NCBI GenBank assembly: GCA_035493515.1
Contig: DATJID010000026.1
Location: 173-64,172 of the forward strand
DNA from: Candidatus Binataceae bacterium
Lineage (GTDB): Bacteria > Desulfobacterota > Binatia > Binatales > Binataceae
Direction of reading: 5' to 3'
Length of the DNA stretch: 64,000 nt
Part shown: piece after piece, positions 4,556-61,806 of the stretch
Layout of the letters: every line of letters starts with the position of its first letter
Position numbering within the stretch: the stretch's first letter is position 1
Notes under the pieces: model-generated
What the model was told of the DNA's origin: nothing
The model's database searches: none
What the model saw: only the letters and a program-made list of their open reading frames with translations
Made by a program: the position numbers and the translations under genes

Positions 4556-5568
4556 GACTTCTTCTCCACGTGGCCGCCGAACTCGTAGCGCATCGCCGAC
4601 AGCATCTTATCGGCGAAGTCGGCCGCGCCTCGCGAGCTGAAGCGCTCGTACAGCGCCGCCGTCAGCACCGGCGCCGGCACTCCTTCATCGATCGCCGCAT
4701 CGACGGTCCATCGCCCCTCGCCCGAATCCGAGACCCGGCCGGCAAACTTCGCCAATTCGGGATCGCCCGCCAGCGCATCGGCCGTCAGGTCGAGCAGCCA
4801 CGAGGCGATCACACTGCCGCGGCGCCAAACCTCGGCAATGTCGGTGAGGTTGAAATCGTACTGGTAGAGTTCCGGATCGCGCAGTGGCGTGGTCTCGGCG
4901 TCAGCCACGTGCTGCTGCTTGCCGACGTTGGCATGACGCAGGATGTTCATTCCTTCCGCGTACGCGGCCATCAAACCGTACTCGATTCCGTTGTGCACCA
5001 TCTTGACGAAATGACCGGCGCCGTTGGGCCCGCAATGCAGGTAGCCGTGCTCGGCGGTGGTCGGGGCGGCTTTCTCGCGTGCGGCGGTGCGTGGCGCCGA
5101 GTCGAGCGGCGGTGCGAGCGTGGCGAAAATCGGATCGAGATGTTTCACGATTTCGGGCTCGCCGCCAATCATCTGGCAAAACCCGCGCTCGAGCCCCCAT
5201 ACGCCGCCGCTGGTGCCGGAATCGACGTAGTGGAGGCCCTTAGCACGCAATGCTTTGGCGCGGCGAAGATCATCCACATAGTAAGAGTTGCCGCCGTCGA
5301 CAAGGATGTCGCCCGGCTCGAACCTGCCCGAAAGGTCAGCAAGCGTTTTCTCGACCACCGCCGCCGGCACCATCATCCACGCCACCCGCGGCTTCTTGAG
5401 CTTCGCTTTGAAATCATCCAACGAAGACGCGCCGATCGCACCCTCCTTGGCCAGTGCCTTTACCGCATCGGCACTGACGTCGAAGACCACGCACTCATGA
5501 CCACCGCGCAGGAGACGGCGCACCATGTTGGCGCCCATCCTGCCCAGACCGACCATACCCATCTGCAT
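4552..5568 (-). CDS. gnd: 6-phosphogluconate dehydrogenase, decarboxylating (short ~340-aa form)
   Basis: [19 protein letters not shown] Rossmann N-terminus and DGGNSYY motif. AAGGAG lies 8 nt before the ATG at 5568. The track start at 5589 is an alternative. Confidence 0.9.
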
Positions 5569-5962
5569 TGCTATCGCTCCTTGGATCATAGTTCGCTCGC
5601 CGGCGAAGCGTTGGAATGAAAGTCCTTTGGCGAGCCATTAACGCGAAGATGTGCTGCAACTAACAGTATGCACTGCCTCGGCTCTCATAAAGAACACGGC
5701 CGCACCTTTTCGCGGGCAGGGTTCCAGCCGCCGAAGGCATTATGGTGGACCGACCCGCGCGGCCGCGTTGGTGGGGAATTGCGCGAACGATACCGCCTAT
5801 GGGCTCGCACTCAGAAAATCGTGAATCGTGTTATCTCGACGACCACCCTAGCCATACATACATGCTGGTTCTTCTATTTTGGGATTGCCCGCCCCTCAAA
5901 ACACGTCACAGATTCCCCTTCTTCTACCTCGACACAAAATTATTGCGTAATTTAGGCTAAAT

Positions 5963-5992
5963 TTGCCAAATTAAAGCGATTTATGCTAATCT
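5963..5992 (+). promoter_or_regulatory. candidate sigma70-type promoter for flp (TTGCCA-18 nt-TAATCT)
   Basis: Hexamers read directly in a 30% G+C stretch about 80 nt upstream of the flp ATG. Spacing is slightly long. Confidence 0.3.
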
Positions 5993-6071
5993 ACTCTCTA
6001 TGAGGTCGTTGTCGTGCAAGTGGTGGCAAAGGTCACTTTTGTGGCCCTAGAGGAGAGAGGAGGTTATTGGC

Positions 6072-6263
6072 ATGAACTTGAAATGTGGAATTTTGGCAAA
6101 GGCGCGAAAATCCAACCTGGGCCAGACGTTCACGGAATATTCGATCATCCTTTTGTTAGTCGCCGTCGCAGCTTATTCTGCCTACGCGGGATTGGGTTTC
6201 GGCGTCAAAAGCTTTGCGGGCAACGTCGTTACGTTCATCGCCACGGCAGTGGCTGCTCTTTAG
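6072..6263 (+). CDS. flp: Flp/Fap-family type IVb pilin precursor
   Basis: 63 aa. Charged leader, then G/QTFTEYSIILLLVAVAA, which fits the Flp processing motif G/xxxxEY followed by a hydrophobic helix. GAGAGGAGG RBS upstream. Confidence 0.75.
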   Translation: MNLKCGILAKARKSNLGQTFTEYSIILLLVAVAAYSAYAGLGFGVKSFAGNVVTFIATAVAAL

Positions 6264-6382
6264 GGGGGCGCGTAGCGATCGAGCGCCGGGGTCCGCTTCA
6301 CGACTCTATATGGCATCCGGCAGCTTCACGGGGACAGTAGCTGGGTAGCGATAAGAGAAGAGATGGCGGACCGAATGTTGGA

Positions 6383-6414
6383 GGCCGGAGTTTTTCTCCG
6401 GCCTTTTTTCTTTT
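6383..6414 (+). terminator. Rho-independent terminator
   Basis: GGCCGGAG-ttttt-CTCCGGCC perfect 8-bp stem (6383-6403) followed by TTTTTTCTTTT. Confidence 0.7.
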
Positions 6415-6826
6415 GGCTCAAAGAGTCTTTCGAAAAAGCGCTTTTCGTAAGTCCGTCCAGCTGCATGAAGATCCGGTCGGCGATGCATCTGAATAATTCC
6501 GCGGGGTCATCGTCGAATATTTCAGGCGCGGATTTTTTTGGCGGTCATCGCCGCCGCGCCGCGGTTGCTTACTCCTCCCGGCAGCCGAAGTGAGGTACGC
6601 CGCAAGGCGGACCACGAACAGGCGGGCATCGGGGAGCCTCCCCCCTCCCACGATGCCCGCCGTTCCTTTGTCCGGCGGCAGCAATCAACTGTTCTTAGTT
6701 TCGAAATTCACCCGGTGCCTTTTTTATAGCGCGCCGTCTGTTTTCCAGCCCGGCGCGATCAAGTTTGTTTGGTTTTCGCGCGACGCTTCTTGACAGCGCG
6801 GGAGCCGCCACGGCATAGCTGGATGC

Positions 6827-7300
6827 TTGATGTGGCAGAAAAGATGTTTGGTGATCGCTCCGTTTTTGGCTTTCGTGATAACGACGCTGTTGCTCAGTTG
6901 CGGGGGAAGCTCCAACAATACGGCGCCAATTGCCACGTCGACGCCGATAACCATCATAGCGGTGCGGGTTTGCGCCCAAGCTCCATCGACTGGCGCCGCG
7001 TGCACGCAGGCGACATCTGCCGAGGTCGCTCTCAGTACATCGAAATTCCAACTCTACGCTCAGGGTGAATTCAGCTCCAACGGGGTCAGCTCTTTCAACG
7101 ATATCTCGCCCTCGGCGAGTTGGTTCGTGAACAACAGTCTTCTCTTGAGCAACGGCTTGGGTTTTTTCACCTCGGGACCGGTCAAGGGATGTTCGTGCAT
7201 AACGGCGGCCTCCGGGACGGTCGTTAGCCCGCCGGTGCTGATTGGGATTGGTCAATCTCCCTCGCTGTGCAGCCCCTGCCCTGCGTCTCCTCCTTCTTGA
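6827..7300 (+). CDS. lipoprotein with bacterial Ig-like (Big_2-like) domain
   Basis: Signal peptide with lipobox LLLSC. The core FQLYAQGEFSSNGVSSFNDISPSASWFVNNS...GCSCITAASG resembles Big_2 repeats. Confidence 0.55.
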   Translation: MMWQKRCLVIAPFLAFVITTLLLSCGGSSNNTAPIATSTPITIIAVRVCAQAPSTGAACTQATSAEVALSTSKFQLYAQGEFSSNGVSSFNDISPSASWFVNNSLLLSNGLGFFTSGPVKGCSCITAASGTVVSPPVLIGIGQSPSLCSPCPASPPS

Positions 7301-7406
7301 AAGCCTCACAGGGCATCGCGCCGACCTCGGAGCATCGCCGCGACGACATTGAGGAGCTGGGGCCCAGAGTTGAAAAGTTATCCACTATGAGGCGTTTGGG
7401 GGAGAT

Positions 7407-7435
7407 TTGACACCGCTCGGACGGGCCGATAGGGT
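7407..7435 (+). promoter_or_regulatory. candidate sigma70-type promoter of the TetR-led cluster (TTGACA-17 nt-TAGGGT)
   Basis: Perfect -35 hexamer at 7407-7412, 17-nt spacer, TAnnnT -10 at 7430-7435, about 27 nt before the TetR ATG. Confidence 0.45.
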
Positions 7436-7461
7436 CTAATTCTCCTGAGGATTTTGCGGTA

Positions 7462-8112
7462 ATGGAACGACAGGCCCGGCGCGCTCAAGTGTTGCGCCAC
7501 GCCAAGCGGATATTCGCGCGCAAAGGCTATCATCGGACCAATGTCGCTGATATCATCGCCCGCGCTCGCATCGCGCGAGGCACCTTCTACCTCTACTTTC
7601 AAAACAAGAAGGTTCTTTTCGAGGAACTTCTCGCCCAAGTGCTAACCGAGCTTTCACGCCGCATCCAGCGTCTGCGTCCGGACGAGCCCGACCCGGTCAA
7701 TCAACTCCGCGACAACCTCAAGCGGGTGATGAATTTCGTGCTGGCGGAACGCGAATTGACCGACATCCTGCTCAACCATTCAGTTGGTTTTGATCGCGAC
7801 CTCGACTTAAGGATTCTGGAATTCTATCAGCGTATCGCCGACGCCATTCAGCGCTCCCTGGACCTGGGAGTGCAGATGAATATGGTACGTCCCTGCGACA
7901 CGCGGATTGCGGCCTTTTGCATCCTGGGAGGAATCAAGGAAGTGGTCGGCCAGATCGCACGGCGGCGTCCGCGTGAGATCGATTCGCTGGTCGAGGAGAT
8001 TCTGGCCTTTGGACTGGGCGGCGTCGGGCGCCCGGAGTTGCTCGAAGAGGCCCGCCGGCGCGGCGAATTGCAGGTCCCGGCGCGCACTATTTCTGGCTCT
8101 AAAGTAGAATGA
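7462..8112 (+). CDS. TetR/AcrR-family transcriptional regulator
   Basis: N-terminal HTH RKGYHRTNVADIIARARIARGTFYLYFQNKKVLFEELL is a textbook TetR_N signature. Confidence 0.9.
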   Translation: MERQARRAQVLRHAKRIFARKGYHRTNVADIIARARIARGTFYLYFQNKKVLFEELLAQVLTELSRRIQRLRPDEPDPVNQLRDNLKRVMNFVLAERELTDILLNHSVGFDRDLDLRILEFYQRIADAIQRSLDLGVQMNMVRPCDTRIAAFCILGGIKEVVGQIARRRPREIDSLVEEILAFGLGGVGRPELLEEARRRGELQVPARTISGSKVE

Positions 8113-8113
8113 C

Positions 8114-8911
8114 ATGTCAGTTTACGTAACCAGAGCGGGACGCCCCTCCCGCGGCAAAGCCAAGGCCTGCGCCTTCTACGATCTGGACGGCACGCTGGCC
8201 GGGCTCAACCTGCTCCACGCCACCGCCTTCTTCATGACCAACCTGGGTGAGTGGAGTGGCCGCGCCGGCTATCTCGCCCGGCTTGCGCTCAGCCTTCCGT
8301 TGCTCTACATGGCCGAGCGTGACGACCGCCGCCTGCTCAACATGAAGCTGTTCGAGGCCTATAAGGGCGTCTCGCGCGATCGCCTGTGGGAACTCGGCGG
8401 CGAGTACTGCGAACGCGTGCTGATCCGCCATCTCTACCCGCACGCGATCGAAATGCTGGAGGCTAATCGCGCCGTGGGCATCGAGCCGGTGCTAGTGACC
8501 GGGTCACCCGATTTCCTGGTGGAACCGCTTGCGCGCCACCTCAAGATTAAACACTTCGCCGCCAATCGCCTGGTCTACAGCCGCGGACTCGCGACGGGCA
8601 GGATGCTGGAGCCGGTGATGGCGGGTTCAGAGAAATCGGCGTGGTGCGAAAGCTTCGCTGCGCAGCAGCGAATCAATATGGCCGCGTGCTGGGGGTACGC
8701 CGATTCATATTACGACCTGCCTTTTCTCTGCGCGCTGGGGCATCCGGTGGCCGTGAATCCCGACCGCCGCCTGCTCGCAGCCGCGCACAACCGCAAGTGG
8801 CCAATTGTTCGTTTCAGCCATGACGCCGGGTCGGGCCGCGAAGACGCGGCGGACGGCGGGTGGCTGCTGGACTGGCTGGGGAGAGCTACGGATGGCGCGA
8901 CCGGAAGGTAA
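8114..8911 (+). CDS. HAD-superfamily subfamily IB hydrolase (phosphatase-like)
   Basis: FYDLDGTL (DxDxT motif I), VTGSPDF (motif II) and GYADSYYDLPFL (motif IV region). Starts 1 nt after the TetR stop. Confidence 0.8.
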   Translation: MSVYVTRAGRPSRGKAKACAFYDLDGTLAGLNLLHATAFFMTNLGEWSGRAGYLARLALSLPLLYMAERDDRRLLNMKLFEAYKGVSRDRLWELGGEYCERVLIRHLYPHAIEMLEANRAVGIEPVLVTGSPDFLVEPLARHLKIKHFAANRLVYSRGLATGRMLEPVMAGSEKSAWCESFAAQQRINMAACWGYADSYYDLPFLCALGHPVAVNPDRRLLAAAHNRKWPIVRFSHDAGSGREDAADGGWLLDWLGRATDGATGR

Positions 8912-10532
8912 GCTCAAAGAGCTGAAGACCGCCGAACTCAGGCACGAGCCCGGCGCGCGCCGTGACCTGGTGGTCACGCTCAACCGGCGCTCGGCGCCGC
9001 GCCTCATCGCCTATGGCGACGACTTCTGGTACGAGAAGCTGCCCGCCGGCACGCGCGTGATCTATCCGCCGCCGCCGCTGGAGCCGCTGGCCGATCCCGA
9101 TGCCGCGATTCGCTACGCGCTTCTGCGCCCCGAAAACGCCGACCCGCTGTTCGCCCAGCTCAATCCCAACATGCGCGTCACCATCGCGATCGACGACATC
9201 AGCCTGCCGTTGCCCCAGATGCGCCGGCCCGATATCCGCGAGCGCGCGCTCAACATCGTGCTGCAGACGCTGGCCGACTATGGGGTCGACGACGTTCATC
9301 TAATCGTCGCGACCTCGCTGCATCGCCGAATGACCGAGGCCGAGATTCGGCGCATGGTGGGTGAGCGCGCGTTCAAGCAATTCTGGCCCGAGCGGCTGTA
9401 CAACTTCGACGCCGAGAATCGTGCCGAAATCGCGATGCTCGGCAAGACCGATCATGGCGAAGAGGTCTGGCTCTCGCGGCGCGCGGCCGAGTCCGACCTG
9501 TTGCTCTATCTCAATATCAATCTGGTTCCGATGGACGGCGGCCACAAATCGGTCGCGGTCGGCCTCGCTCCCTATCAGAGCCTGCGCCACCATCACAATC
9601 CCGCAACGCTGCGACAGTGCAACTCATACATGGACCCGACCCGCTCGGCGCTGCACAACTCGGCCAACCGGATGGGCCGGCTGGTCAACGAGCACGTCAA
9701 CGTCTTCACCATCGAGACCGCAATCAACAACCAGATGTACGGCGGGATGCTCGATTTCCTGCAAAAGAACGAAGACCGCTTTTCGGATTGGGACCGGATG
9801 CGCCTGAAGGGTTTTCGCTGGACGCTCGGCAACATGTCGGATTCGATGCGCCGCCAGGTGCTCAACCAATACGCCGCGCCCTATTCGATGACCGGTGTAT
9901 GGGCCGGCGAGACCGACGCGGTGCATCGCAAGGCGCTGGCCCGCGTGTTCCAGCAGTATGCGGTGCCGGTCAAGGGCCAGTCCGACGTGCTGATCGTCGG
10001 CGTCCCTTACGTCTGTCCGTACAACGTGAACTCGGTGATGAATCCAGTGCTGGTGCAGTGCACCGGCCTCGGCTACCTGTTCAACATGTTCCGCGGCAAG
10101 CCGCTGGTACGCGAAGGCGGCACCGTGATCATCTGCCATCCGCTGCGCGATCAGTTCCATCCCGAGCATCATCCAAGTTACATCGAGTTCTTCCATCGCT
10201 GCCTGCGCGAGACCACCGACGCCACTGAACTGGAGCGCAACTTCGAGGCCGAGTTCGCGCGCAATCCGACCTACGTTCACATGTACCGCTACGGCCATGC
10301 CTACCACGGCGTGCATCCGTTCTACATGTGGTACTGGGGCGAGCCGGCCCGTCAGCACGTCGGACGGGTGATCGCGGCTGGATGCGAGGAGCCGGAAGTC
10401 GCAACGCGCATGGGATGGGAATCCGCCGACACGCTGGACGAGGCGATCGCGATGGCGACGTCGGATCTGGGGCGCTCGGCCAGTATCACCTATCTCCACT
10501 TACCGCCGCTGGTGATAGCCGATGTCGAATAG
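8892..10532 (+). CDS. LarA-like (lactate racemase N-terminal domain / DUF2088) protein, 546 aa
   Basis: RVTIAIDDISLPLP...VHLIVATSLHRRMTEAEI...LLLYLNINLVPMDGGHKSVAVGL resembles the Lar_N fold motifs. ATG at 8892 chosen (MARPEGK...). The track start at 8805 lies inside the HAD gene. Confidence 0.7.
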   Translation: MARPEGKLKELKTAELRHEPGARRDLVVTLNRRSAPRLIAYGDDFWYEKLPAGTRVIYPPPPLEPLADPDAAIRYALLRPENADPLFAQLNPNMRVTIAIDDISLPLPQMRRPDIRERALNIVLQTLADYGVDDVHLIVATSLHRRMTEAEIRRMVGERAFKQFWPERLYNFDAENRAEIAMLGKTDHGEEVWLSRRAAESDLLLYLNINLVPMDGGHKSVAVGLAPYQSLRHHHNPATLRQCNSYMDPTRSALHNSANRMGRLVNEHVNVFTIETAINNQMYGGMLDFLQKNEDRFSDWDRMRLKGFRWTLGNMSDSMRRQVLNQYAAPYSMTGVWAGETDAVHRKALARVFQQYAVPVKGQSDVLIVGVPYVCPYNVNSVMNPVLVQCTGLGYLFNMFRGKPLVREGGTVIICHPLRDQFHPEHHPSYIEFFHRCLRETTDATELERNFEAEFARNPTYVHMYRYGHAYHGVHPFYMWYWGEPARQHVGRVIAAGCEEPEVATRMGWESADTLDEAIAMATSDLGRSASITYLHLPPLVIADVE

Positions 10533-13500
10533 CAATGGAACTAACGGCAACGCCGCACGCACCGCGATGGCGCCGCTCGAACAGACCCTGCGCCGCCGCC
10601 GCATCCTGCTCACCGGCGCGACCGGCTTTCTCGGCAAGGTCTTCCTCTCGCTGCTCCTGCGCTGGCATCCGGAGGTCGAGCGCGTCTATCTGCTCATCCG
10701 CGGCGACCGGCGCCTCGCGCTTAGTCGTTTGCGCCGCGAAATTCTCGATTCGCCCGTCTTCGGTCCGTTGCGCGAACATCTGGGCGACCGCTTCGACCGC
10801 TACGTCGAAGAAAAACTCACCGTGCTCTGCGGCGACATTACGGAGGAGGATCTGGTTTCCGAAGGCGACGCGCCCGGCCGCGGCGAGATCGACGCCGTGG
10901 TGCATTGCGCCGGGCTGGTCAATTTCGAGGCCTCGCTGGAAAAATCGCTCTCGGTCAACACCACGGGGGTCGCCCATGTGATCGAGTTCTGCCGCAAGCG
11001 CGGCGCAGCCCTGCTTCACGTTTCTACCTGCTACGCCGCGGGCAATGCCGACGGTCATCGTTTCGAGGACGACACGCCGGTCGACTGGTGCCCCAACGGC
11101 CGGCGCAACTTCACGCTGCGGCGCGAGATTCGCGACGCGCTCGCCGCCGTCGCCCGCGTGGAAGCTGAATCCCACGACCAGGTGCGCCAGGCCGACGAGC
11201 TTCACGTGGTCAACGCCGACCCCGACGGCGGTGACGCCCATGAAGCCGCGGCTCAGCGCTGGCGCAAGCGATGGGTCGAGGAGCGGCTGAAGGAGATCGG
11301 CCTGGAGCGCGCGCGTCGATGGGGATGGCCCAACACCTACAGCTACAGCAAGAGCCTCGGCGAACAGTTGGTGTTCGCCGCGCAGGACTCGATCGCGGCG
11401 ACCGTTGCGCGTCCCTCAATTATCGAGAGCGCCCTTCGCGATCCGTTCCCGGGATGGAACCAGGGCGTCAACACCAGCGCGCCGCTGACTTATCTTTCAG
11501 GCCGCGGCTATCGCTTCTACCCGGCCAAAGGCGAACTGGTGCTCGACATCATACCGGTCGATCTGGCGGCGCACGCGATGATTCCGATTCTTGCGGCGCT
11601 GCTCGCCGGGCGCCACAAACCTATCTACCAGCTCTGCACCTCGGACGTGAATCCGCTGCCGATGCGCCGGCTGGTCGAGCTCACCGGGCTCAGCAACCGC
11701 CGCGAGCATCGCCGGGTCGGCGGCCCGATGGGCCGCTTCGCGCCACATCTTGAGGCGGTAGTCGTTTCGCAAAGTACCTACGAACTCGCGAGCCAGACGC
11801 TGCCCGAGTTGCTCAAGAAAGGCGCCGGAGCCGCGCGCACCCTGCTTGGCGAGGATTCCGAACGGGCGAAAAAATTTGAACAAGGGGTCGAGAAGTTTGG
11901 CGCCAATACCGCGATGGCGCGCGAGCTGGTCGAAGTCTATCGACCGTATATCCAGGAGCTGGTTTACACCTTCCACGGCACCAACATTCGCGCGCTCTAC
12001 AAGTCGCTCGCGGCGGCCGACGCCGAACATCATCCCTACGCGCCCGAGCGCGTCGATTGGGCGGATTACTGGATCAACGTGCATTTGCCGGGGCTGCGCC
12101 GGCACATCTTCAGCTCGCTCGATCTTCACACGCGCGGCCGCCCCACGGCTCCGGCGCGTCATCGTACGCTGACCGAGATGCTGGACCGCGCCGCCGAGCG
12201 TTACGGCTCGCGGCCGGCGCTGGTCGCGCGCCCGCCCTCGGGCGAGCGTGTCACGACGACCTACCGCGAGTTGCGCGACAGCTCGCATCGCGCCGGACTG
12301 CTGCTCGGGATGCGTGGGGTCAAGACCGGCGACCGGGTGCTGCTCATCGGCGAAAACTCCCCCGAGTGGGTGCTCGCGTACTTCGCGATTCTCGCCGCCG
12401 GCGCCGTCGCGGTGCCGCTGGACCATCTGATTTCGCCCGAGGAGCTCGCGCCGATCTGCCGCATCGCCACGCCTGCGGCGGCGCTGTGCTCGGCGGACGT
12501 AGCAAAACGCCTGGGCAATGCACTGGCCGAGATGGACGGCGACATCGTCGAGCTCGAGTTTACGGAACTAAGCCGTCCGTTCGTCCTCAAGGGACGGCCT
12601 GACGCGCGGCCCGCCCCCGAGCGCAAGACGCTCGCTTCCATCGTCTTCACCTCGGGCACCACCGGTGCGCCCAAGGGCGTGATGCTGACGCACGGGAATT
12701 TCGCCGCCGAAGTGGCGATGCTCGCACGGGTCTTTACGCTCGATTCGTCTGACGTGGTACTCTCGCTGCTTCCGCTCCATCACACCTTCGAATTTACCTG
12801 CGGGATGCTGTTGCCGCTCGCGCTCGGCGCGACCGTGGTCTATCCGCTCGGCGTGGACGCCGCTAGCCTCGCGCGTACACTGGCCGACGTGCGGCCGACG
12901 GCGGTGGTCGGAGTGCCCGCGCTGTGGGAAGCGGTTCATCGCCGCATCGTTGATGGTGTCGAAGCGCAGGGGCCGTTCCTCCACGCGCTGTTCGATCGGC
13001 TGCGCGATCTCAACCGCAGGTTCGATCGCGAATGGGGTCTCAACGCCGGCGCGATGCTTTTTCGCCAGGCCCATACCGCGCTTGGCGGACGGCTGCGGCT
13101 CGCCGTGAGCGGTGGGGCCGCGCTACCTCAGCGCGTCGCCAGCTTTTTCAATGACCTGGGCATCCGGCTGCTTGAAGGATACGGCCTGACCGAGGCGGCG
13201 CCCGTGCTGAGCGTCGCGCGTCCGGACGAGCCGATGGCTCCCGGGTCGGTCGGCAAGCCGCTCAACGGGGTCGAGATAAAGCTCGCCTCCAGCGGCGACG
13301 GCGCGGTGGGCGAAATCCTGGCGCGCGGGCCGAACGTGATGGCGGGGTACTACCACAACAAGGCCGCCACCGACGAGGTGCTGCACGACGGATGGCTGCG
13401 CACGGGCGATCTCGGCCGCCTCGACGAAGACGGACGGCTCTATATCGTGGGCCGCGCCAAGGACGTGATCGTCGATTCCGGCGGCAACAATATTTACATC

Positions 13501-14943
13501 GACGAACTCGAAGAGGTTTATGGCCATTCCTCGTATATCAAGGAACTTGCGATCGTAGGCTTGAAAGTTGGCCAAGGTGAGCAGGCCGCCGCGTTAGTCG
13601 TGCCCGCCTACGCGCGCGGAGAAAGCCGCCGCGCCGTCGAAGATAACCTGCGCACCCATTTTGAGAAAGTCGGCGCCGGACTCAGCCCGCACAAACGTAT
13701 CCGCATCCTGCGCTTCACCGACGCCGAGCTTCCGCGCACTCGCACGCGCAAGGTCATACGCCTCGAGGTCGCAAAAACGCTGGAGCGGATGCTCGAAACC
13801 CACGCCCAGGAGCGCGCGGCAGTCAGCTCCGAGGTCGAACCGTGGCTCGCCCAGGCGCTGGCGCAGGTCTCCAGCGGCATCGAGAGCATCACGCCCGCGA
13901 CCCGGCTCATCGAGGACCTCGGCCTCGACTCGCTGGCGATGGCCGAGCTGGCCGAGCATATCGCAGCGCATGCCGAACGCGAGCTGAGCCCTGCGCAGCT
14001 CGGCGATCTCCGCACCGTCGATGATCTGCAACGCGCCGTGGGCCAGGGACAGAACCGCCCTCGCCTGCCGTCGTACGCGCGCTTTGCGGAGCCGTTCACT
14101 CCGGCCCTGCCCGGCGCGCTCAAGCGCCTGGGCGAAGCGGCGTTTCGTGGCGCCCAGCGCCTCGCGTTCGACGGATGGTTGCGGCCGCGCGTACTGGGGC
14201 GCGGCAACGTTCCCGCCAACCGCAATTTCCTGGTGGTGGCCAATCACGCCAGCCATCTCGACTTCGCGCTCGCCAGCTATGCGCTGGGCGCGCCGGGCCG
14301 CGAACTGGTCGTGCTCGCCGCCAAGGATTATTTCTTCAATACCAATGCGCGCCGTTTCGTGGTCAGCAACTTCACCCGCCTCATTCCGTTCGATCGCGAG
14401 CGCGCCCAGCTCGACTCGCTCGACGACGCCATAGACGAACTCGAAGCCGGCCGCAGTGTGCTGATGTTTCCCGAGGGCACGCGCTCACCCGACGGCGCAA
14501 TCCATGAATTCAAAAGCGGCGCCGGCTACCTGGCGCTGCGCGGCGGATGTGACGTGCTCCCGGTCCGCATCAGCGGAACTTATGAGGTTCTGGGCAAAGG
14601 CAGCATCATCCCCCATCGCCGCCCGGTCGAGGTCCGAATCGGTCGCGTCATTACCAATGCCGAGTTGCGCGCGCTCGCTGACAATGCCGAGGGCACCGGC
14701 GCCTATCGCAAGCTCGCCGACGCGATGCGCGCCGCGGTGCTGGAACTGGGAGAGCGGATACTTTCCTCAGGCACAGCCAAGCGCACACGGCGCACGCACG
14801 CCGCGCCCGGCGGCGATGGCGGCGGCGCCGCCGAAGCCCCGGCCGAAACCGCTCCGCCGGCGGACGCGGCGCCCGAGGAGCCGCGGACCGCAAGTCGGCC
14901 GCGCCGGAACTCCGCACGCGCCAATCGGCGAGCCAAGGGCTGA
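10522..14943 (+). CDS. multidomain lipid enzyme: fatty-acyl reductase + acyl-AMP/CoA ligase + carrier protein + PlsC-type acyltransferase (ElbD-like)
   Basis: 1473 aa. Motifs TGATGFLGK and YSYSK (reductase), TSGTTGAPKG and GYGLTE (adenylation), GLDSL (phosphopantetheine Ser), NHASHLD and FPEGTRS (acyltransferase). ATG overlaps the preceding gene by 11 nt. Confidence 0.9.
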   Translation: MSNSNGTNGNAARTAMAPLEQTLRRRRILLTGATGFLGKVFLSLLLRWHPEVERVYLLIRGDRRLALSRLRREILDSPVFGPLREHLGDRFDRYVEEKLTVLCGDITEEDLVSEGDAPGRGEIDAVVHCAGLVNFEASLEKSLSVNTTGVAHVIEFCRKRGAALLHVSTCYAAGNADGHRFEDDTPVDWCPNGRRNFTLRREIRDALAAVARVEAESHDQVRQADELHVVNADPDGGDAHEAAAQRWRKRWVEERLKEIGLERARRWGWPNTYSYSKSLGEQLVFAAQDSIAATVARPSIIESALRDPFPGWNQGVNTSAPLTYLSGRGYRFYPAKGELVLDIIPVDLAAHAMIPILAALLAGRHKPIYQLCTSDVNPLPMRRLVELTGLSNRREHRRVGGPMGRFAPHLEAVVVSQSTYELASQTLPELLKKGAGAARTLLGEDSERAKKFEQGVEKFGANTAMARELVEVYRPYIQELVYTFHGTNIRALYKSLAAADAEHHPYAPERVDWADYWINVHLPGLRRHIFSSLDLHTRGRPTAPARHRTLTEMLDRAAERYGSRPALVARPPSGERVTTTYRELRDSSHRAGLLLGMRGVKTGDRVLLIGENSPEWVLAYFAILAAGAVAVPLDHLISPEELAPICRIATPAAALCSADVAKRLGNALAEMDGDIVELEFTELSRPFVLKGRPDARPAPERKTLASIVFTSGTTGAPKGVMLTHGNFAAEVAMLARVFTLDSSDVVLSLLPLHHTFEFTCGMLLPLALGATVVYPLGVDAASLARTLADVRPTAVVGVPALWEAVHRRIVDGVEAQGPFLHALFDRLRDLNRRFDREWGLNAGAMLFRQAHTALGGRLRLAVSGGAALPQRVASFFNDLGIRLLEGYGLTEAAPVLSVARPDEPMAPGSVGKPLNGVEIKLASSGDGAVGEILARGPNVMAGYYHNKAATDEVLHDGWLRTGDLGRLDEDGRLYIVGRAKDVIVDSGGNNIYIDELEEVYGHSSYIKELAIVGLKVGQGEQAAALVVPAYARGESRRAVEDNLRTHFEKVGAGLSPHKRIRILRFTDAELPRTRTRKVIRLEVAKTLERMLETHAQERAAVSSEVEPWLAQALAQVSSGIESITPATRLIEDLGLDSLAMAELAEHIAAHAERELSPAQLGDLRTVDDLQRAVGQGQNRPRLPSYARFAEPFTPALPGALKRLGEAAFRGAQRLAFDGWLRPRVLGRGNVPANRNFLVVANHASHLDFALASYALGAPGRELVVLAAKDYFFNTNARRFVVSNFTRLIPFDRERAQLDSLDDAIDELEAGRSVLMFPEGTRSPDGAIHEFKSGAGYLALRGGCDVLPVRISGTYEVLGKGSIIPHRRPVEVRIGRVITNAELRALADNAEGTGAYRKLADAMRAAVLELGERILSSGTAKRTRRTHAAPGGDGGGAAEAPAETAPPADAAPEEPRTASRPRRNSARANRRAKG
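10600..11631 (+). other. domain: NAD(P)-binding fatty-acyl reductase (NAD_binding_4-like)
   Basis: GxxGxxG at 10612-10635; YxxxK (YSYSK) at 11338-11352. Confidence 0.8.
12163..13761 (+). other. domain: AMP-dependent synthetase/ligase
   Basis: TSGTTGAPKG at 12649-12678; later EGYGLTE, TGDLG and a PRTRTRKV C-terminal lysine motif. Confidence 0.85.
13834..14037 (+). other. domain: acyl/peptidyl carrier (PP-binding)
   Basis: LIEDLGLDSLAMAEL; the predicted phosphopantetheinyl Ser codon is tcg at 13930-13932. Confidence 0.75.
14194..14601 (+). other. domain: PlsC/AGPAT-type acyltransferase
   Basis: HxxxxD box NHASHLD at 14242-14262; FPEGTRS block downstream. Followed by an Ala/Pro/Arg-rich tail. 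Confidence 0.8.
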
Positions 14944-15102
14944 GCGCGCGCGTCATCAGCCCAGGCGCCGGCGCCCCTGTGGACCGCTGCATTTTCAGCG
15001 GTTAGCAGGTTCGCGCCGATGAGCTAAGCTGAGAGTCGACGGACGCACGAGGGTGCCGCGGCGACCGCGCATCGTCACCGGAGCGCGCACCTTCGTCAAA
15101 CG

Positions 15103-15636
15103 ATGGATTGGTTCAGCAAACGCCCCGATCATCAGAGCCACGTGGCGCGAAACCGAGGCCGTCCCTCAGTCACCGAAATTTCTCCTGGCCTGCTGGTTGG
15201 CGAATTTCCTCGTCCTGAGGACATCGCCTGGCTCAAGTCGGAGTTCGGCGTGACCGCCATCCACAATCTCCAGGATGACGAAGACTTGACGCTCAACGGA
15301 CTGCGCGAGCGCGAGCTTGCGGAGGCGTGCCGCTTGAGCGAGATGAAATTCGTCCGCACACAGATCCAGGATGGCAGTGCGGACGCGATGGCCGAGCGGC
15401 TCGACGATACGTTGGAGGCTCTTGCCAGCCTCATCGGCGATGGCGAGCGGGTTTACCTGCACTGCAATGCGGGTCTCAATCGCGCGCCGACGCTGGCGAT
15501 CGCGTACTTGCGCGCGCATGGCAAAATGTCACTCGACGAGGCCTGCGCCCACGTCAAGGCGCGTCGCACCTGCGGCCCATTCATGACGATTTTGGAGGAC
15601 TACTTCGGACCGCGCCATCACAAGCCCGGCCAATGA
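15103..15636 (+). CDS. dual-specificity (Cys-based) phosphatase-family protein
   Basis: 177 aa. ISPGLLVGEFP entry motif, an upstream acid (IQDGSAD) and the catalytic loop VYLHCNAGLNRAPT (HCxxGxxR). Confidence 0.8.
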   Translation: MDWFSKRPDHQSHVARNRGRPSVTEISPGLLVGEFPRPEDIAWLKSEFGVTAIHNLQDDEDLTLNGLRERELAEACRLSEMKFVRTQIQDGSADAMAERLDDTLEALASLIGDGERVYLHCNAGLNRAPTLAIAYLRAHGKMSLDEACAHVKARRTCGPFMTILEDYFGPRHHKPGQ

Positions 15637-15709
15637 GCCGGTTGCGCGGACGAGCCGCGACGCAGCGACGCGCGCGCGCGAGCGCTGGCTGCGGCTTTGC
15701 GCCTGGGGC

Positions 15710-16414
15710 GTGCATCTATACACCGCGCTCGGCGCGATCGCCGGCCTGGTTTCAATCGATTGCGCCGCGCGCGGCGATTTTCGCGCGAGCTTCATCGCGA
15801 TGGCGGTCGCCACCGCGATTGATTCCAGCGACGGTCCGCTCGCGCGCCTGCTCGAAGTGCGCCGGCGCATCCCGCACTTCGACGGCGCATTGCTCGACAA
15901 CATCGTCGACTACCTGACCTACGTGCTCGCTCCGGTCTTCTTGATGCTGCGCGCGGGAATTCTCGAGCCTGGGCTCGGCGGATTTCTCGTCGGCGGCTTT
16001 GCGATGCTGGCAAGCGGCTACGGCTTTTGCCATGTCGAGGCCAAGACCGACGATCATTACTTCCGCGGTTTTCCTTCGTACTGGAACCTGGTCGCGTTTT
16101 ACCTCTATTGTCTTGGCGTCGGCACGCTCGCCGGCACGATCGTCGTTGCGGTGTTCGCGGTGATGGTGTTCGTGCCGATCAAATACATCTATCCGAACCG
16201 TACTGGGCCGCTGCGTGCCGTTACTCTAACGCTGGCGATCGCCTGGGGGATAGTCACGCTCGCGCTGCTGGCCGAGTTGCCCGCTAATCATCCCGTATTA
16301 CTCTTCGCATCGCTGTCGTTCATCACTTATTACCTGGTCGCCTCGTTCATCCTGCACGCGCGCGCGGCGCTGAAACTTCGGCGTTACCGGTCCGGCGGCG
16401 CGGGGCAACATTGA
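15710..16414 (+). CDS. pcs: phosphatidylcholine synthase family (CDP-alcohol phosphatidyltransferase)
   Basis: DSSDGPLARLLEVRRRIPHFDGALLDNIVDYLTYV fits D(x)2DG(x)2AR...G(x)3D(x)3D. VHLYTALG, KTDDHYFRGFPSYWN and FVPIKYIYP match my memory of rhizobial Pcs. The true N-terminus may lie upstream (see findings). Confidence 0.8.
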   Translation: MHLYTALGAIAGLVSIDCAARGDFRASFIAMAVATAIDSSDGPLARLLEVRRRIPHFDGALLDNIVDYLTYVLAPVFLMLRAGILEPGLGGFLVGGFAMLASGYGFCHVEAKTDDHYFRGFPSYWNLVAFYLYCLGVGTLAGTIVVAVFAVMVFVPIKYIYPNRTGPLRAVTLTLAIAWGIVTLALLAELPANHPVLLFASLSFITYYLVASFILHARAALKLRRYRSGGAGQH

Positions 16415-18324
16415 TGACTGGGTCGAGGGGCGGGCCGCATGGTTTCGACCAAGCCGCGGCGCCGAAAAGCGCACGATGGCTCCAGGCGGCCGACGGCGAC
16501 GCGCCGGTATTGCTGATTGCTCCCCACGGCGGCCAGGCCGGCCCGGCCACGCGAGCGCTGCTCAATCCCAAGGTCAACGATCTCTACACCGCCGACATAA
16601 CGCACGAGTTGGCGCAGCGCCTCGGCGCAGGCGCGTTCATCAATTCCGGAATGGATCGCAACCGGCTCGACCTCAACCGTCTAAGCCAGGTGATGAGCGA
16701 GGCGCCGTGGATGCTCGAACTTATCGCCGCGCGCCTGGAGCGAATCGTCGCGCAGCACGGCCGCGCCGTGGTCTTGTTGATTCACGGATGGAACGTTATC
16801 GAGCCGCGCGTCGACGTCGGCATCGGAGTCAAATCGGCCAACGGGGCGCTGCTGCCCGCATGCGGCGCGCACGTATCCGCCAGTGATGGTTTCGTAAACG
16901 GGCCGCTGGTCGACTTTTTCGAAGTGCTCGGCCGTAGCGGTATCGAGCCCACCTTCGGCCTGCGCTATCCGGGAGCCGGTGCCAACAATCTGCTGCAGGC
17001 GTTCACTCAGCGTCATGCGTCGAGCTCGATCGGTACGCTGCGGCGTCTATCCACACTCAACGCGCGCGGCGTACTGGAGGCCGTACAACTGGAACTTTCA
17101 GTGGCGCTGCGGATGCCCGGCCGCTTCCGCACCAAAACCATCGCCGCAATCGCCGAGTCGTTCGCGCGATGCGATCTCGTGGCCGCCGCGTCGACAACCA
17201 ACGGCGCCAAGGCCACGAGCCGCATCGAGATCGTGCGCATGGCTGAGTTTCCCGCGCCGCCGCCTCCTCGAAGCGTGCCGCAAACGTCCGCCGGACCATT
17301 GCGCGTCGGACTGGAGTTTTACGATTCGTCGACGCACATCGGCGCGATGGCGAGTTTCGATCTTGGCTCGGGCGCCGCCGGCGCGCGCGTGATGGTGATG
17401 CTGGGCCGCGAGCGCATCGCGCTCTTCACGGCCGAGGGGCGCGTCGAGCGTACCGCCGAGAGCCTGACGCTGGGTCCGCTGGCTTTGCGAATTCGCGAGG
17501 GGCGCCTGCATTTCGAGTTTGCCGGACCGGCGGTGGTGGTTGATGACGGACGAGCCTATCTAAGCGTCGAACACGCCCTCGCCAAGGCTGCGCTATATGA
17601 GTCGATGGCGCTTCAGGCGGAGTTCGACACCTTGTCGGCGAAGAGCGCGCAGTCAGAATTGCAGACCGAAACGCTCATCGAATCAATAACTCGTCCGGAG
17701 GATGCCGGCCAGGGTGTCTTCGGCCGCGTCACCGGCCATTTCTCAATCACCGGAGAAAAACGTCGGATTCAGGCCGTTGCCCGAGTCGGGCGCTCGCTCA
17801 TCGGAATCGGCAGCGGCGCCTTTAAAGAGCGTCGAATGATGTGGGCCGTGCTGCCCGACGAAGCGTCGCCGCACGCCGTAGAAGCGCGCACGCTAATCGA
17901 CCATGAAGCCGTGGCGCGGGCAAGTTCGCGGGTGCTCGATCGCGGGCGATGGGGCGTCGCCAGCCTCGAGCGGCTTAAGTTCACTGCCGCCGCGCCCAGA
18001 CGCCCGCCGCAGCGAATCAGCGCCATACTGCGGCGGATCGATGACGGCCACGCGCTTGCGCCCCAAATCATGATTGACGGCAGGGTCCACAGCTTCGTGA
18101 TGCTGTCGCGGCCGGGGCCCGCGCAGAGCCGAATCTTGACCTCACTTGGTTTCGCCACATTTCGCGTCGGAAATCATAGCGGAGGTCATAGCGGAAACCT
18201 TCCCGGAGATCTTCACGGCGCCGGGATGTTCGAATACTCGCACCGTATCTCGCTTGCACCGGCTGCGGGGGTGGATCTTCCCGACGCGGTAGATCTAGCC
18301 GACGCTGATAACGGCGAAAGCTAG
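16414..18324 (+). CDS. hypothetical 636-aa protein; N-terminal ~250 aa reminiscent of N-formylglutamate-amidohydrolase-like fold
   Basis: LLIAPHGGQ, DRNRLDLNR and VVLLIHGWN resemble FGase-family blocks (weak, from memory). I do not recognise the C-terminal ~380 aa. ATG shares one base with the pcs stop (TGATG). Confidence 0.5.
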   Translation: MTGSRGGPHGFDQAAAPKSARWLQAADGDAPVLLIAPHGGQAGPATRALLNPKVNDLYTADITHELAQRLGAGAFINSGMDRNRLDLNRLSQVMSEAPWMLELIAARLERIVAQHGRAVVLLIHGWNVIEPRVDVGIGVKSANGALLPACGAHVSASDGFVNGPLVDFFEVLGRSGIEPTFGLRYPGAGANNLLQAFTQRHASSSIGTLRRLSTLNARGVLEAVQLELSVALRMPGRFRTKTIAAIAESFARCDLVAAASTTNGAKATSRIEIVRMAEFPAPPPPRSVPQTSAGPLRVGLEFYDSSTHIGAMASFDLGSGAAGARVMVMLGRERIALFTAEGRVERTAESLTLGPLALRIREGRLHFEFAGPAVVVDDGRAYLSVEHALAKAALYESMALQAEFDTLSAKSAQSELQTETLIESITRPEDAGQGVFGRVTGHFSITGEKRRIQAVARVGRSLIGIGSGAFKERRMMWAVLPDEASPHAVEARTLIDHEAVARASSRVLDRGRWGVASLERLKFTAAAPRRPPQRISAILRRIDDGHALAPQIMIDGRVHSFVMLSRPGPAQSRILTSLGFATFRVGNHSGGHSGNLPGDLHGAGMFEYSHRISLAPAAGVDLPDAVDLADADNGES

Positions 18325-18329
18325 CGGCC

Positions 18330-19289
18330 TCAGGCGGGCTCTTCGGTAACGAGCGGCGGCGGTGAAGGTGCCGCCGCGGCGACGGCGGTGCGCCGTGTGA
18401 TCTCCTGTTCCAGTGTGGTGGCAATCGCCGCGAACTGCTTGGTCAGCGGCGCTTCGGGATATTCCCGCAGGAATAGCGCGCCGCGTTCGGCGCAATCCGC
18501 CAGCCGCGGATCGAATGGAAGCCGTCCGAGAATCGGCGCCCCGACCGTTTGCGCCAGGCCCGGGAAGTTGCCTTGCGGAAAGAGCGGCCGTACGGTGTGG
18601 CAACTGTCGCAGTTGAAGCCGAGCATGTTTTCGATAAGCCCGAGCACCGCGATCTTGTCGTGTGCGATGATCTTGAGCGCGTCGTGAGTCGCACGCACGC
18701 AGGCTTCGGATGGGCGCGTAACCATTACAATGCCGGTGAGTTCGATCACTTCGGCCAAGCAATGCAACGACGAGAGGCCCGAGGCAAGGTCGATAAGCAT
18801 CAGATCGAGCGGCCCGAAGCGCGCTTCGATCAGGCGGCGCAGCGCGCCACGATGGTCGATCTCGAGCGAGCCGGCGCCGTTTTGCGCTACTGCCGGCGCC
18901 GGCGTCTCATCGCCCTCGACGAAACTGAACGCCGCCGGCTCGCCGTCGGCCAACTGGCTCGAGGCAACCACGCGGATTCCCAGCGGACCCGAAGCGGGAT
19001 CGATCTCCTCGCCGGGCGCGAACCGCCGAAGCGGCTTCAGCCCGAGCATCCCCAGCAGACAGGGCGAGTTCAGGTCGGCATCGACAATCGCCACCTTGCG
19101 CCCGGCCAGCGCCAGCGCGGCCGCGACATTGACGCAGATTCCGCTCTTGCCGACCCCGCCCCTGGCGCTGGCAAAAGCGACAACCGCACGCACGCCGGGC
19201 GGCTTTAGGATTGCCGCCGCTCCATTGTCTGTCGTAATGCCGGCGGGCGCCCTGTCAGAGGACGCCTCGCGAAAGATTCTTGTCCTCAA
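18330..19289 (-). CDS. mrp: Mrp/NBP35/ApbC-family P-loop ATPase (Fe-S cluster carrier-like)
   Basis: VVAFASARGGVGKSGICVNVAAALALAGRKVAIVDADLNSP plus a CDSC pair and LGRLPFDPRL in the C-terminal half. Confidence 0.8.
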   Translation of the reverse strand: MRTRIFREASSDRAPAGITTDNGAAAILKPPGVRAVVAFASARGGVGKSGICVNVAAALALAGRKVAIVDADLNSPCLLGMLGLKPLRRFAPGEEIDPASGPLGIRVVASSQLADGEPAAFSFVEGDETPAPAVAQNGAGSLEIDHRGALRRLIEARFGPLDLMLIDLASGLSSLHCLAEVIELTGIVMVTRPSEACVRATHDALKIIAHDKIAVLGLIENMLGFNCDSCHTVRPLFPQGNFPGLAQTVGAPILGRLPFDPRLADCAERGALFLREYPEAPLTKQFAAIATTLEQEITRRTAVAAAAPSPPPLVTEEPA

Positions 19290-19575
19290 TTATACCTTCC
19301 CAGGTAGATACCGGCCGGGCCTACATTCTGCCCGGCACACACATCCCGCCAAGCGGCACGCTGAAGGATCGCACACTCCCGTGCCAACCATCCGGCCCGT
19401 GCCCCTACAGAACTAGAATGCCCGTCGATCGAGCGGGGGTAAAGATGCTTTGCCAAGGCTCATCTATCGATGCGCGTTTTGGCTCATTGCGGTTCCACCC
19501 GCCAGGCATAGTCAACGTCAGGCCTGCCTGCAGGCCTTCGTAGTTTTGTGTTACCTGCGTGACGCGATCGGGGTT

Positions 19576-54774: not shown

Positions 54775-54847
54775 GGTCCGATACTTATAGCATCTGGATT
54801 GCTCGATCCGGCAGGCTGTTAAAGGCACAAGGAGGCGCGACGCGCAA

Positions 54848-55378
54848 ATGACCTTCCCCTATCCTCTTCCTGAACTGGATCTCAGCGCTCCATTGGATCG
54901 TTACCGCGCCGCCGTACTTCCCGAGTGGATCGATTCATACGGTCATATGAACATGGCAGTGTACGTGACGGTCTTCGACCAGGCCGCCGATGTCCTGTGC
55001 GCTATGCTCGGAGTCGGCCCGCTCTACACGCAACATGAGCTTGGCATGCTGTTCGTGCTTGAAACTCATCTTGCCTATGCGCGCGAGGTCCGCCTCGGCG
55101 CGCCCTTGCGAGTCACTTCACAGATCCTCGACCACGACGCGAAACGCCTGCATCTTTTTCATCACATGTATCACGGCGAAGAAGGATGGCCGGTGGCTAC
55201 CAACGAAGTGCTGATGATCAATGTCGAGTACAATTCGCGGCGCACCGTGCCGTGGCCGGACGCGACGATGCGCCGGCTCGGCCTGATGGCGGCCGCGCAC
55301 TCAGGTTTGCCCAGACCCGAAAATGCGGGCCGCATCATTCGTATCAAGGCCGGTCACAGCTCTGCGAGAAATCGATGA
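54848..55378 (+). CDS. hotdog-fold (4HBT-type) acyl-CoA thioesterase-family protein
   Basis: 176 aa. VLPEWIDSYGHMNMAVYVTVFDQA and LETHLAYAREVRLGAPLRV are typical 4HBT-like strings. Confidence 0.65.
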   Translation: MTFPYPLPELDLSAPLDRYRAAVLPEWIDSYGHMNMAVYVTVFDQAADVLCAMLGVGPLYTQHELGMLFVLETHLAYAREVRLGAPLRVTSQILDHDAKRLHLFHHMYHGEEGWPVATNEVLMINVEYNSRRTVPWPDATMRRLGLMAAAHSGLPRPENAGRIIRIKAGHSSARNR

Positions 55379-55550
55379 CTTCAAGCTTGTCTTTAGATTC
55401 CGTCTTTTTAGAGGAAATCAGGACGATTGAGAATGAGCATCGGATGCCGACCGGTGGACCTTGTCTGAGGTCTTTCAAACATCACAAAAGAAGCTTACAA
55501 TCACTAAGAGGCGTTAAAACGAAGAATCGATCCTATGTTTAATAGCAATT

Positions 55551-56126: not shown

Positions 56127-56129
56127 ACC

Positions 56130-56296
56130 GCCCCCGAAAAGCGCCGCTCCCGATAGTGCGAAGAGCGCTATCGCCAGCGCAACCAACGCCGGATGGGAAA
56201 AAAGGCTGCGAGGCCGCCCCGGGCGATCACGGCCAGCGCAAAATAGGCGGCAGTGCCCACCAGGATTAACGTCCATCTGACGGTCGACTTCATCAT
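56130..56296 (-). pseudogene. 5' remnant of a polytopic membrane protein gene (possibly ICMT/phospholipid-methyltransferase-like), frameshifted and truncated
   Basis: MMKSTVRWTLILVGTAAYFALAVIARGGLAAFF continues as SHPALVALAIALFALSGAALFGGG only after a 1-nt frame change in the A6 run at 56198-56203. Beyond about 56130 the frame is merely antisense to the FecR ORF. Confidence 0.5.
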
Positions 56297-61788: not shown

Positions 61789-61806
61789 CCGCGAGACGGG
61801 TAAGCG

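Follow-up and report, generated by a model that had tools for sequence, protein, structure and literature searches.

The alkyl and alkenyl ether lipids of Myxococcus xanthus depend upon a large protein, ElbD (MXAN_1528; UniProt Q1DC43), described by Lorenzen et al. in 2014 and summarized in later work (PMC9131029; PMC13012113). ElbD begins with a domain that resembles FAR1, a fatty acyl-CoA reductase (FAR), and continues with acyl-CoA-synthetase, acyl carrier protein (ACP) and AGPAT-like acyltransferase domains, in that order (PMC9131029). When elbD is deleted, alkyl and alkenyl ether lipids alike are lost (PMC9131029; PMC13012113), and the route it serves is independent of AGPS (PMC9131029). 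In the elbABCDE arrangement, elbB codes for a HAD-type phosphohydrolase, elbC for a protein whose function is not known, and elbA and elbE for NAD-dependent epimerase/dehydratases (PMC9131029; PMC13012113). The elbE gene is reported to be important in M. xanthus; elbD and elbE may be unlinked from elbB and elbC (PMC9131029). We describe here a gene of this kind from a Candidatus Binataceae bacterium, found within 64,000 nucleotides of contig DATJID010000026.1 (GenBank assembly GCA_035493515.1, positions 173 to 64,172 of the forward strand), a stretch that we refer to throughout as the window. The gene, at 10522..14943, is likely the Binatia orthologue of ElbD, standing at the head of an AGPS-independent elb ether-lipid pathway and set in a tight TetR–HAD–LarA-like–ElbD cluster. 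The ElbD family itself is known; to it is added a member from the Binatia, a clade in which the operon takes a variant form.

Translation of the window gives, at 10522..14943 on the forward strand (+)—the strand of every gene and domain of the cluster given below—a single open reading frame with an ATG start, 1473 amino acids (aa) in length. Domain order and homologue alignments mark the product as an ElbD-type multifunctional enzyme. First comes a full FAR module, aa 22-531 (10585..12114), comprising a Rossmann (NAD_binding_4) part and a C-terminal Sterile part, and assigned from PDB entry 7eoz, Pfam and invariant residues. An ANL-type adenylation domain of the long-chain fatty-acid ligase kind follows at aa 546-1085 (12157..13776; Pfam and PDB), then an acyl carrier domain at aa 1105-1172 (13834..14037), and finally a PlsC/AGPAT/GNPAT-type acyltransferase domain at aa 1215-1400 (14164..14721), ahead of a low-complexity tail rich in Ala, Pro, Arg and Gly (14722..14940). 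The Pfam matches—NAD_binding_4 at aa 30-353 (E 6.7e-49), AMP-binding at aa 554-944 (E 2.9e-83) with AMP-binding_C at aa 995-1077, PP-binding at aa 1108-1169 (E 6e-6) and Acyltransferase at aa 1223-1351 (E 6.6e-25)—are far beyond chance.

The motifs expected of each module are present. The reductase has TGATGFLGK (aa 31-39), S168/T169 and YSYSK (aa 273-277; Y273-x3-K277). The adenylation domain has TSGTTGAPKG (aa 710-719), EGYGLTE (aa 885-891), TGDLGR (aa 961-966), GRAKD and PRTRTRK (aa 1071-1077), and with Lys1077 as the A10 lysine, the whole ANL core set is represented: A3 (P-loop), A5 (GYGxTE), A7 (TGD), A8 (GRxKD) and A10. The carrier domain has GLDSL (aa 1134-1138), in which the phosphopantetheine serine, Ser1137, is encoded by TCG at 13930-13932, and the acyltransferase has NHASHLD (HX4D; aa 1241-1247) and FPEGTRS (aa 1316-1322). 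An earlier, sequence-only reading of this DNA had proposed one open reading frame, four domains and a list of catalytic motifs, and each of these is found where it was placed within 10522-14943; PDB alignments and conservation among homologues indicate, further, that none of the catalytic residues was mis-assigned. What that reading left undecided was whether the N-terminal position of the reductase represents a permutation of the ElbD order. It does not, because the order FAR–adenylation–ACP–PlsC is identical to the one described for M. xanthus ElbD (PMC9131029).

At the sequence level, the comparison is with Myxococcota proxies drawn from a genome scan: proteins from Polyangiaceae, Kofleriaceae, Myxococcales and Bradymonadaceae metagenome-assembled genomes (MAGs), the Myxococcus protein not being among them. 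Aligned by BLASTP to one of these, Polyangia ElbD P0272, the window protein forms one colinear block that extends from aa 19 to aa 1399 at 38% identity. Much closer relatives abound. The best 120 in the databases share 67-98% identity with it, almost all of them in full length and with the same Pfam architecture, and where the organism is named it is only Candidatus Binataceae, Binatus or Binatales, or carries the older label Deltaproteobacteria. The closest relatives, at 68-93% identity, are without exception from Candidatus Binataceae/Binatus. Conservation is high over Binatia protein clusters numbering in the hundreds. Clustering of a library at 50% identity leaves a single representative for the full-length Binatia proteins, with fragments as the other close entries; the next relatives are 46% identical at most, and dozens more full-length, four-domain representatives of about 1400-1700 aa lie between 30 and 46%.

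Conservation was assessed in set A1, which comprises 35 divergent proteins with all four domains whose identity to the window ElbD ranges from 29 to 68%. Invariant in 35/35 are G32, G35, F36, S168, T169, Y273 and K277 of the reductase; G712, E891, T961-G962-D963 and R978 of the adenylation domain together with S1137 of the carrier; and N1241, D1247, P1317, E1318 and R1321 of the acyltransferase. Nearly invariant are H1242, kept in 34 of the 35, and the A10 lysine, K1077, kept in 27. Among 117 full-length homologues of the Binatia type, each of ten motifs is retained in at least 112. To judge from these two sets of alignments, purifying selection is acting on all four modules and on every catalytic residue.

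The tail is another matter. Its assignment comes from composition and homologue comparison: of the 68 residues of aa 1406-1473, 15 are Ala, 11 Arg, 8 Gly and 7 Pro, in keeping with the Ala/Pro/Arg-rich tail of about 60 aa that the sequence-only reading had reported. With homologues from outside the Binatia it does not align—mean identity is 17%, and the BLASTP alignment stops at aa 1399. Among the closest Binatia relatives the middle of the tail is variable and a basic motif at its end, NRPRR.SAR..RRAKG, is retained. This basic end might make contact with the membrane or with anionic lipids.

The N-terminal module deserves closer attention, for it is here that the sequence-only reading has to be revised. 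Between the Rossmann reductase and the adenylation domain it had placed a spacer of about 170 aa; this stretch, aa 360-531, is instead the FAR C-terminal (Sterile) domain, because the match to 7eoz, a solved fatty acyl-CoA reductase of plant type with 532 residues, spans both halves of the module (aa 22-179 and 253-531, E 6e-52), and because aa 466-530 score 27 bits on Pfam Sterile, short of the cut-off of 35.4. By these alignments the module is a complete FAR, and not just a Rossmann reductase with a linker behind it.

Completeness of the FAR bears upon a quite different explanation, that the protein is an enzyme of secondary metabolism, akin to the carboxylic acid reductases (CARs) or to non-ribosomal peptide synthetase (NRPS)-like proteins, which releases an aldehyde for tailoring and has nothing to do with membrane lipids. 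CARs and NRPS-like adenylation–thiolation–reductase (A-T-R) enzymes do unite in one protein an adenylation step, tethering to phosphopantetheine and reduction of the thioester with NAD(P)H, and the adenylation–ACP pair plus NAD_binding_4 reductase found here belongs to that toolkit, too; the NCBIfam CAR model matches the protein, although at 170 bits against a cut-off of 1300, and genome-mining tools class elb clusters with biosynthetic gene clusters. But their reductase lies at the C-terminus, without a FAR_C domain, and they have no acyltransferase, whereas the window protein has an N-terminal reductase, a complete FAR with FAR_C included, and carries, fused at its C-terminal end, a glycerolipid acyltransferase of the PlsC type. 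The reductase does match a CAR (5msp, E 4e-8), MxaA and the terminal reductases of NRPSs and polyketide synthases (PKSs), with E-values from 4e-8 to 3e-5, but through the Rossmann part alone. Nor are the neighboring genes of a tailoring sort; they are of lipid head-group type, or housekeeping. We have rejected the A-T-R reading for its N-terminal, FAR-type reductase and its C-terminal acyltransferase, and consider an enzyme of this kind highly improbable. Kinship with the reductive-release enzymes of NRPS and PKS systems was the outcome that would have told against a lipid enzyme, and the E-values point the other way. Together with the ElbD domain order and the intact catalytic residues, the FAR-type reductase upholds the interpretation, first offered from the bare sequence, of a lipid enzyme.

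The three remaining modules fit such an interpretation. The adenylation domain matches fatty-acyl-CoA synthetases in the PDB with an E-value of 1e-45; it reaches the cut-off of no NCBIfam equivalog, and is classed no more narrowly than as of the long-chain fatty-acid ligase type. In the carrier domain, Ser1137 aligns on the DSL serine of AcpM. The acyltransferase matches Thermotoga maritima PlsC (5kym; E 1.2e-17), with NHASHLD lying on NHQSLMD and FPEGTRS on FPEGTRS. Its acceptor would be glycerol 3-phosphate (G3P), dihydroxyacetone phosphate (DHAP) or a lyso-lipid.

In the window, ElbD is preceded by genes in the published upstream elb order—HAD, the gene at the elbC position (LarA-like here), ElbD—with overlapping ends. 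The HAD-IB hydrolase gene (8114..8911; Pfam HAD E 6.7e-30) is elbB-like, and scores 100.2 bits on TIGR01490, against a cut-off of 98.3. It overlaps the start of the next gene, at 8892..10532, which codes for a 546-aa homologue of LarA, of the nickel-pincer nucleotide (NPN) family, and occupies the elbC position; this in turn overlaps the start of ElbD by 11 nt. To see how far the arrangement extends, consider the 14 loci with full-length ElbD from Polyangiaceae, Kofleriaceae, Myxococcales, Bradymonadaceae, Acidobacteriota (including Pyrinomonadaceae), Phycisphaerae, a Proteobacteria MAG and an unclassified MAG. ElbD has a LarAH gene directly upstream in 11/14 (Myxococcota, Acidobacteriota and the Proteobacteria MAG), with a product 50-57% identical to that of the window, and in 9/14 a HAD gene lies upstream of the LarAH–ElbD pair. 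An NAD epimerase/dehydratase gene, elbE, is directly downstream of ElbD in 7/7 of the non-Binatia loci checked. In one locus, L008, all four genes overlap end to end: HAD (5709-6371), LarAH (6368-7993), ElbD (7983-12353) and epimerase (12350-13348). The MAG in question bears the title Myxococcales, and its ElbD falls with proteins of the Polyangia. In a rough neighbor-joining tree, the Binatia clade is nested in the LarAH-linked ElbD group, apart from two distant loci.

Those two loci, L010 (8001-12996) and L012 (8001-12940), one from Acidobacteriota and one from Phycisphaerae, belong to the same distant ElbD-like subfamily, of about 30% identity; both have a HAD gene downstream, and neither has a LarA-like gene. 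ElbD-like proteins therefore form at least two operon types.

Could the protein be a device for fatty-acid salvage instead, and make no ether at all? Its adenylation, carrier and acyltransferase parts would then re-acylate lysophospholipids or G3P with exogenous fatty acids, in the manner of Aas, the 2-acylglycerophosphoethanolamine acyltransferase/acyl-ACP synthetase of Escherichia coli, and the FAR part would supply fatty alcohols or aldehydes, to be used in wax esters or in signalling. Like the window protein, Aas fuses a fatty-acid ligase to a PlsC-type acyltransferase and passes on acyl-ACP, and the NCBIfam Aas models (acyl-[ACP]--phospholipid O-acyltransferase) match the window protein at 188-211 bits; these scores are far below the cut-offs, however, and come only through the common ligase and acyltransferase folds. 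Organisms exist, too, that carry ElbD homologues and have no detectable ether lipids. Yet the order of parts in Aas is the reverse, acyltransferase before ligase, its ACP acts in trans, and it has no FAR or any other reductase. The FAR fusion and the HAD/LarAH linkage, moreover, are conserved jointly with proteins in the published elb operon arrangement, and deletion of elbD in M. xanthus eliminates the ether lipids themselves. On this evidence salvage strikes us as unlikely, and ElbD function, in ether-lipid synthesis, as much the better description.

The gene at the elbC position is of interest in its own right. On the NCBIfam model NF052592 ('NPN-dependent hydroxyacid isomerase, LarAH14/15/16 family') its product scores 840 bits, against a cut-off of 740, and its best solved relatives are LarA_Sp and LarA_Bw (9q2u, E 2e-30; 9q3j, E 1e-28). 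Aligned to the LarA of Lactiplantibacillus (5huq), its H144 falls on the catalytic His108, K219 on Lys184, which tethers the NPN, and H235 on His200, a ligand of the nickel; where LarA has its second catalytic histidine, His174, stand N208/N210. Thirteen orthologues, drawn from three phyla, all keep H144, K219, H234/H235 and N208/N210. From these correspondences the protein is a LarA homologue with a single catalytic histidine, predicted to be NPN-dependent; that it corresponds to elbC is a matter of operon position. Across phyla it is conserved better, at 50-57% identity, than ElbD itself, at 35-45%.

LarA_Sp and LarA_Bw (PDB 9q2u, 9q3k and 9q3j) are single-histidine proteins, too, encoded in the midst of genes for glycolysis and carbohydrates, and no substrate is known for them (PMC12611868). 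They share with the window protein a length of about 500-550 aa, the NPN lysine, the nickel histidine, the one catalytic histidine and, in place of the second, an asparagine, which is invariant in orthologues of the window type. What sets the window protein apart is its position: in at least three phyla it has a fixed place upstream of ElbD. No larB, larC or larE gene was found in the window, nor upstream of the six elb loci examined; the genes upstream of those six are unrelated, and code for a prolyl oligopeptidase, EF-G, Che proteins, KAS III, a radical SAM enzyme and an exonuclease. In the searchable literature we found no paper that mentions both elbD and a racemase; the two papers there that name both ElbC and ether are silent on the nickel-pincer cofactor, and no link between ElbC and the LarA family was found there.

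A LarA-type enzyme fixed beside ElbD is a concrete candidate for the step that forms the ether or isomerizes the backbone. One can go further, and suppose that it is the catalyst missing from the AGPS-independent ether route, one that works by hidden redox: a hydride would be abstracted transiently from a carbinol of the glycerol backbone, or of a hemiacetal, and the aldehyde or alcohol made by ElbD would in consequence become ether-linked. This is conjecture, and we expect it to prove wrong more readily than right. Were it true, aerobic bacterial ether-lipid synthesis in Myxococcota, Acidobacteriota and Binatia would be nickel-dependent, with need of the LarB/C/E cofactor pathway, and an orphan LarA subfamily would gain its first lipid substrate.

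If homology is a fair guide to the biochemistry of the Binatia protein, its reactions would run roughly as follows. The adenylation domain would use ATP to activate a free long-chain fatty acid and load it, as a thioester, onto the phosphopantetheine of Ser1137, the carrier thus serving in cis; the analogy is with M. xanthus ElbD, for which both activities have been shown in vitro (PMC9131029). The FAR module would reduce the tethered acyl group with NAD(P)H to an aldehyde, and possibly onward to an alcohol, while the PlsC/GNPAT-like domain would pass an acyl chain to an acceptor of the glycerol-phosphate type, G3P or DHAP. Such channelling of acyl groups, deduced by homology, would not in itself yield the ether bond: synteny suggests that the bond would call for the conserved partners, the LarA-type enzyme above all, and not ElbD alone. 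The sequence-only reading had seen here a self-contained machine. We disfavor that description, because an ether bond is more than the four domains can make by themselves, and because the HAD and LarA-type genes directly upstream are conserved across phyla. Downstream, a phosphatase, a transferase resembling phosphatidylcholine synthase (Pcs) and an AttH-like protein would probably—and here we speculate—finish the backbone and head group.

The cluster in the Binatia opens with a gene for a TetR-family regulator (7462..8112; Pfam TetR_N E 6.6e-15), whose best NCBIfam match is FadR-like, at 58.7 bits, below the cut-off; a gene is found at the same position in L001, the locus of a relative that is 70% identical. 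Beyond ElbD, and past a gap of about 160 nt (14944-15102), lie three more genes. The first (15103..15636; Pfam DSPc E 4.6e-16) codes for a dual-specificity (CX5R) phosphatase in which HCNAGLNR is intact, and which has a 62% identical counterpart in L001. Its best matches in the PDB are plant glucan phosphatases, LSF2 (E 3e-17) and SEX4 (E 1.5e-10). That these are its best solved relatives leaves a reading of the gene as a PTPMT1-like lipid phosphatase unsupported. Between ElbD and the phosphatase, L001 has an extra gene, at 14317-15162, for a protein of 281 aa with weak matches to Zn-phospholipase C and S1-P1 nuclease; the window has no counterpart.

The second gene (15710..16414) codes for a membrane protein of the CDP-alcohol phosphatidyltransferase kind, Pcs-like by its NCBIfam matches, motif and hydrophobic segments. 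It scores 123-185 bits on NCBIfam Pcs models, each score being below the respective cut-off, carries DSSDGPLAR...GALLDNIVD, and is conserved in L001. The third (16411..18324), whose start overlaps the stop of the second, codes for a protein of 637 aa, characterized through an AF2 model and Foldseek, for which neither Pfam nor NCBIfam gave a match. An alpha/beta domain makes up its N-terminal part, and an AttH/CrtC-like beta domain its C-terminal part. Its model (pLDDT 77.6) finds Fsa2, kievitone hydratase, 25-phosphosteroid lyase and AttH at E-values from 5e-9 to 3e-6; the C-terminal double-beta domain, as modeled, would resemble the AttH/CrtC-like fold used on hydrophobic substrates. Among the 120 homologues listed for this protein, every one with a named organism is from Binataceae or Binatus. 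Speculatively, the downstream trio might represent clade-specific finishing of the backbone or head group.

What the Binatia loci do not have at this place is elbE: tblastn with four ElbE proteins found none in the window or in the L001 locus. This raises the question of the product. The enzyme family may be the same and its product different, not the myxobacterial alkyl-phosphatidylethanolamine/plasmalogen precursor but a lipid peculiar to the Binatia, which may be of an alkyl/acyl glycerophosphocholine type, for example, or a hydroxylated or alkenyl lipid. The missing elbE, set against the seven other loci that have it, speaks for this, and so do the phosphatase (DSPc), Pcs-like and 637-aa genes, conserved in L001 as in the window and missing on either side of ElbD in the other 14 loci, and the fold of the 637-aa protein, common to hydratases and lyases of lipids and terpenoids. 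On the other side, elbE might be encoded elsewhere in the genome, and since unlinking of elbD and elbE has been reported (PMC9131029), an adjacent elbE is not a strict requirement of the ElbD family; the downstream genes are parted from ElbD by the 160-nt gap; and what links them to it is gene order conserved in one clade only. A different product is possible, in our opinion, without being the outcome that we would expect.

Our preferred reading, an ElbD orthologue at the head of an ether-lipid pathway, has considerations of its own to contend with, and these weigh against it. M. xanthus ElbD entered the comparison by its published description, with proxies standing in for its sequence, and the myxobacterial proteins are no more than 37-40% identical. 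In M. xanthus ElbD, too, adenylation and ACP loading are the only activities demonstrated in vitro, the FAR and acyltransferase activities not among them (PMC9131029). Pontiella has an ElbD homologue and yet no ether lipids have been detected in it, so a homologue is no guarantee of the product. A search of the available literature turned up no lipid data for the Binatia, and the absence of elbE from both window and L001 means that their product may differ from the myxobacterial one.

The rest of the window is ordinary chromosome, with pentose-phosphate genes and genes for a Mrp/ParA-type ATPase, DksA, a MiaB-like enzyme, LolA, FtsK, RNase J, aconitase, an Lhr helicase and efflux systems. Cluster and flanks are the same around the gene in L001. 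G+C content is 0.56-0.60 at 54800-64000 and 0.57 around 6-8 kb (5600-7400), compared with about 0.64 elsewhere. The genes at the right end are ordinary, coding for a thioesterase, a FecR-like protein, a lactonase-type beta-propeller and OEP/HlyD efflux components, along with three open reading frames without family. Scans of the whole window for tRNAs and Rfam families gave no match, and a scan of 5500-19500 for promoters and terminators gave counts at chance level, uninformative as to the limits of the operon.

The gene occurs widely in metagenomes of soil and rhizosphere. Two root-metagenome runs labeled as RNA, X16 and X17, yield near-identical fragments over 7000-19500, flanks included, at low and even depth. 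Because these are assembled contigs, in which depth is no measure of expression and carried-over DNA is possible, they are weak evidence that the cluster is expressed.

Clusters of the ElbD type are the main genomic marker for production of alkyl-ether lipids by bacteria, among them candidate sources of the lipids used as environmental proxies. To the likely carriers of such genes can now be added the Binatia, an abundant and uncultured lineage of soil and rhizosphere; we found no paper in the searchable literature that links Binatia or Binatota with ether lipids or ether-lipid genes. Their operon variant, with phosphatase, Pcs-like transferase and AttH-like protein instead of elbE, hints at a different finished lipid. 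And the LarA homologue at the elbC position offers a concrete way into a problem that dates from 2014, namely by what means the ElbD route forms its ether bond when it has no AGPS. The locus would be of higher interest only if the nickel-pincer link proves to be functional.

How, then, does the Binatia enzyme stand among the systems to which it might be related? FARAT, and FAR-GNPAT fusions of the MXAN_1675 type, likewise join a FAR and a GNPAT/AGPAT-type acyltransferase in one polypeptide, and they and the eukaryotic set of FAR1, GNPAT and AGPS share with it what is presumably the same logic, the supply of a reduced fatty chain and of an acylated triose or glycerol phosphate. FARAT, however, is without adenylation and carrier domains between its modules, uses acyl-CoA, and requires AGPS for the ether bond, and there is no AGPS in the 64-kb window. 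M. xanthus ElbD is nearer. The four modules are the same, in the same order and in a protein of similar size, a HAD gene and a gene at the elbC position lie upstream in both, and the ElbD proteins of Myxococcota are homologous and colinear over their full length. Around and beyond this common core the Binatia system has gone its own way: TetR lies upstream, neither elbE nor elbA adjoins, phosphatase, Pcs-like transferase and AttH-like protein lie downstream, and the enzyme itself ends in a basic, low-complexity tail. And the host, here, is not M. xanthus, but an uncultured bacterium of the soil.

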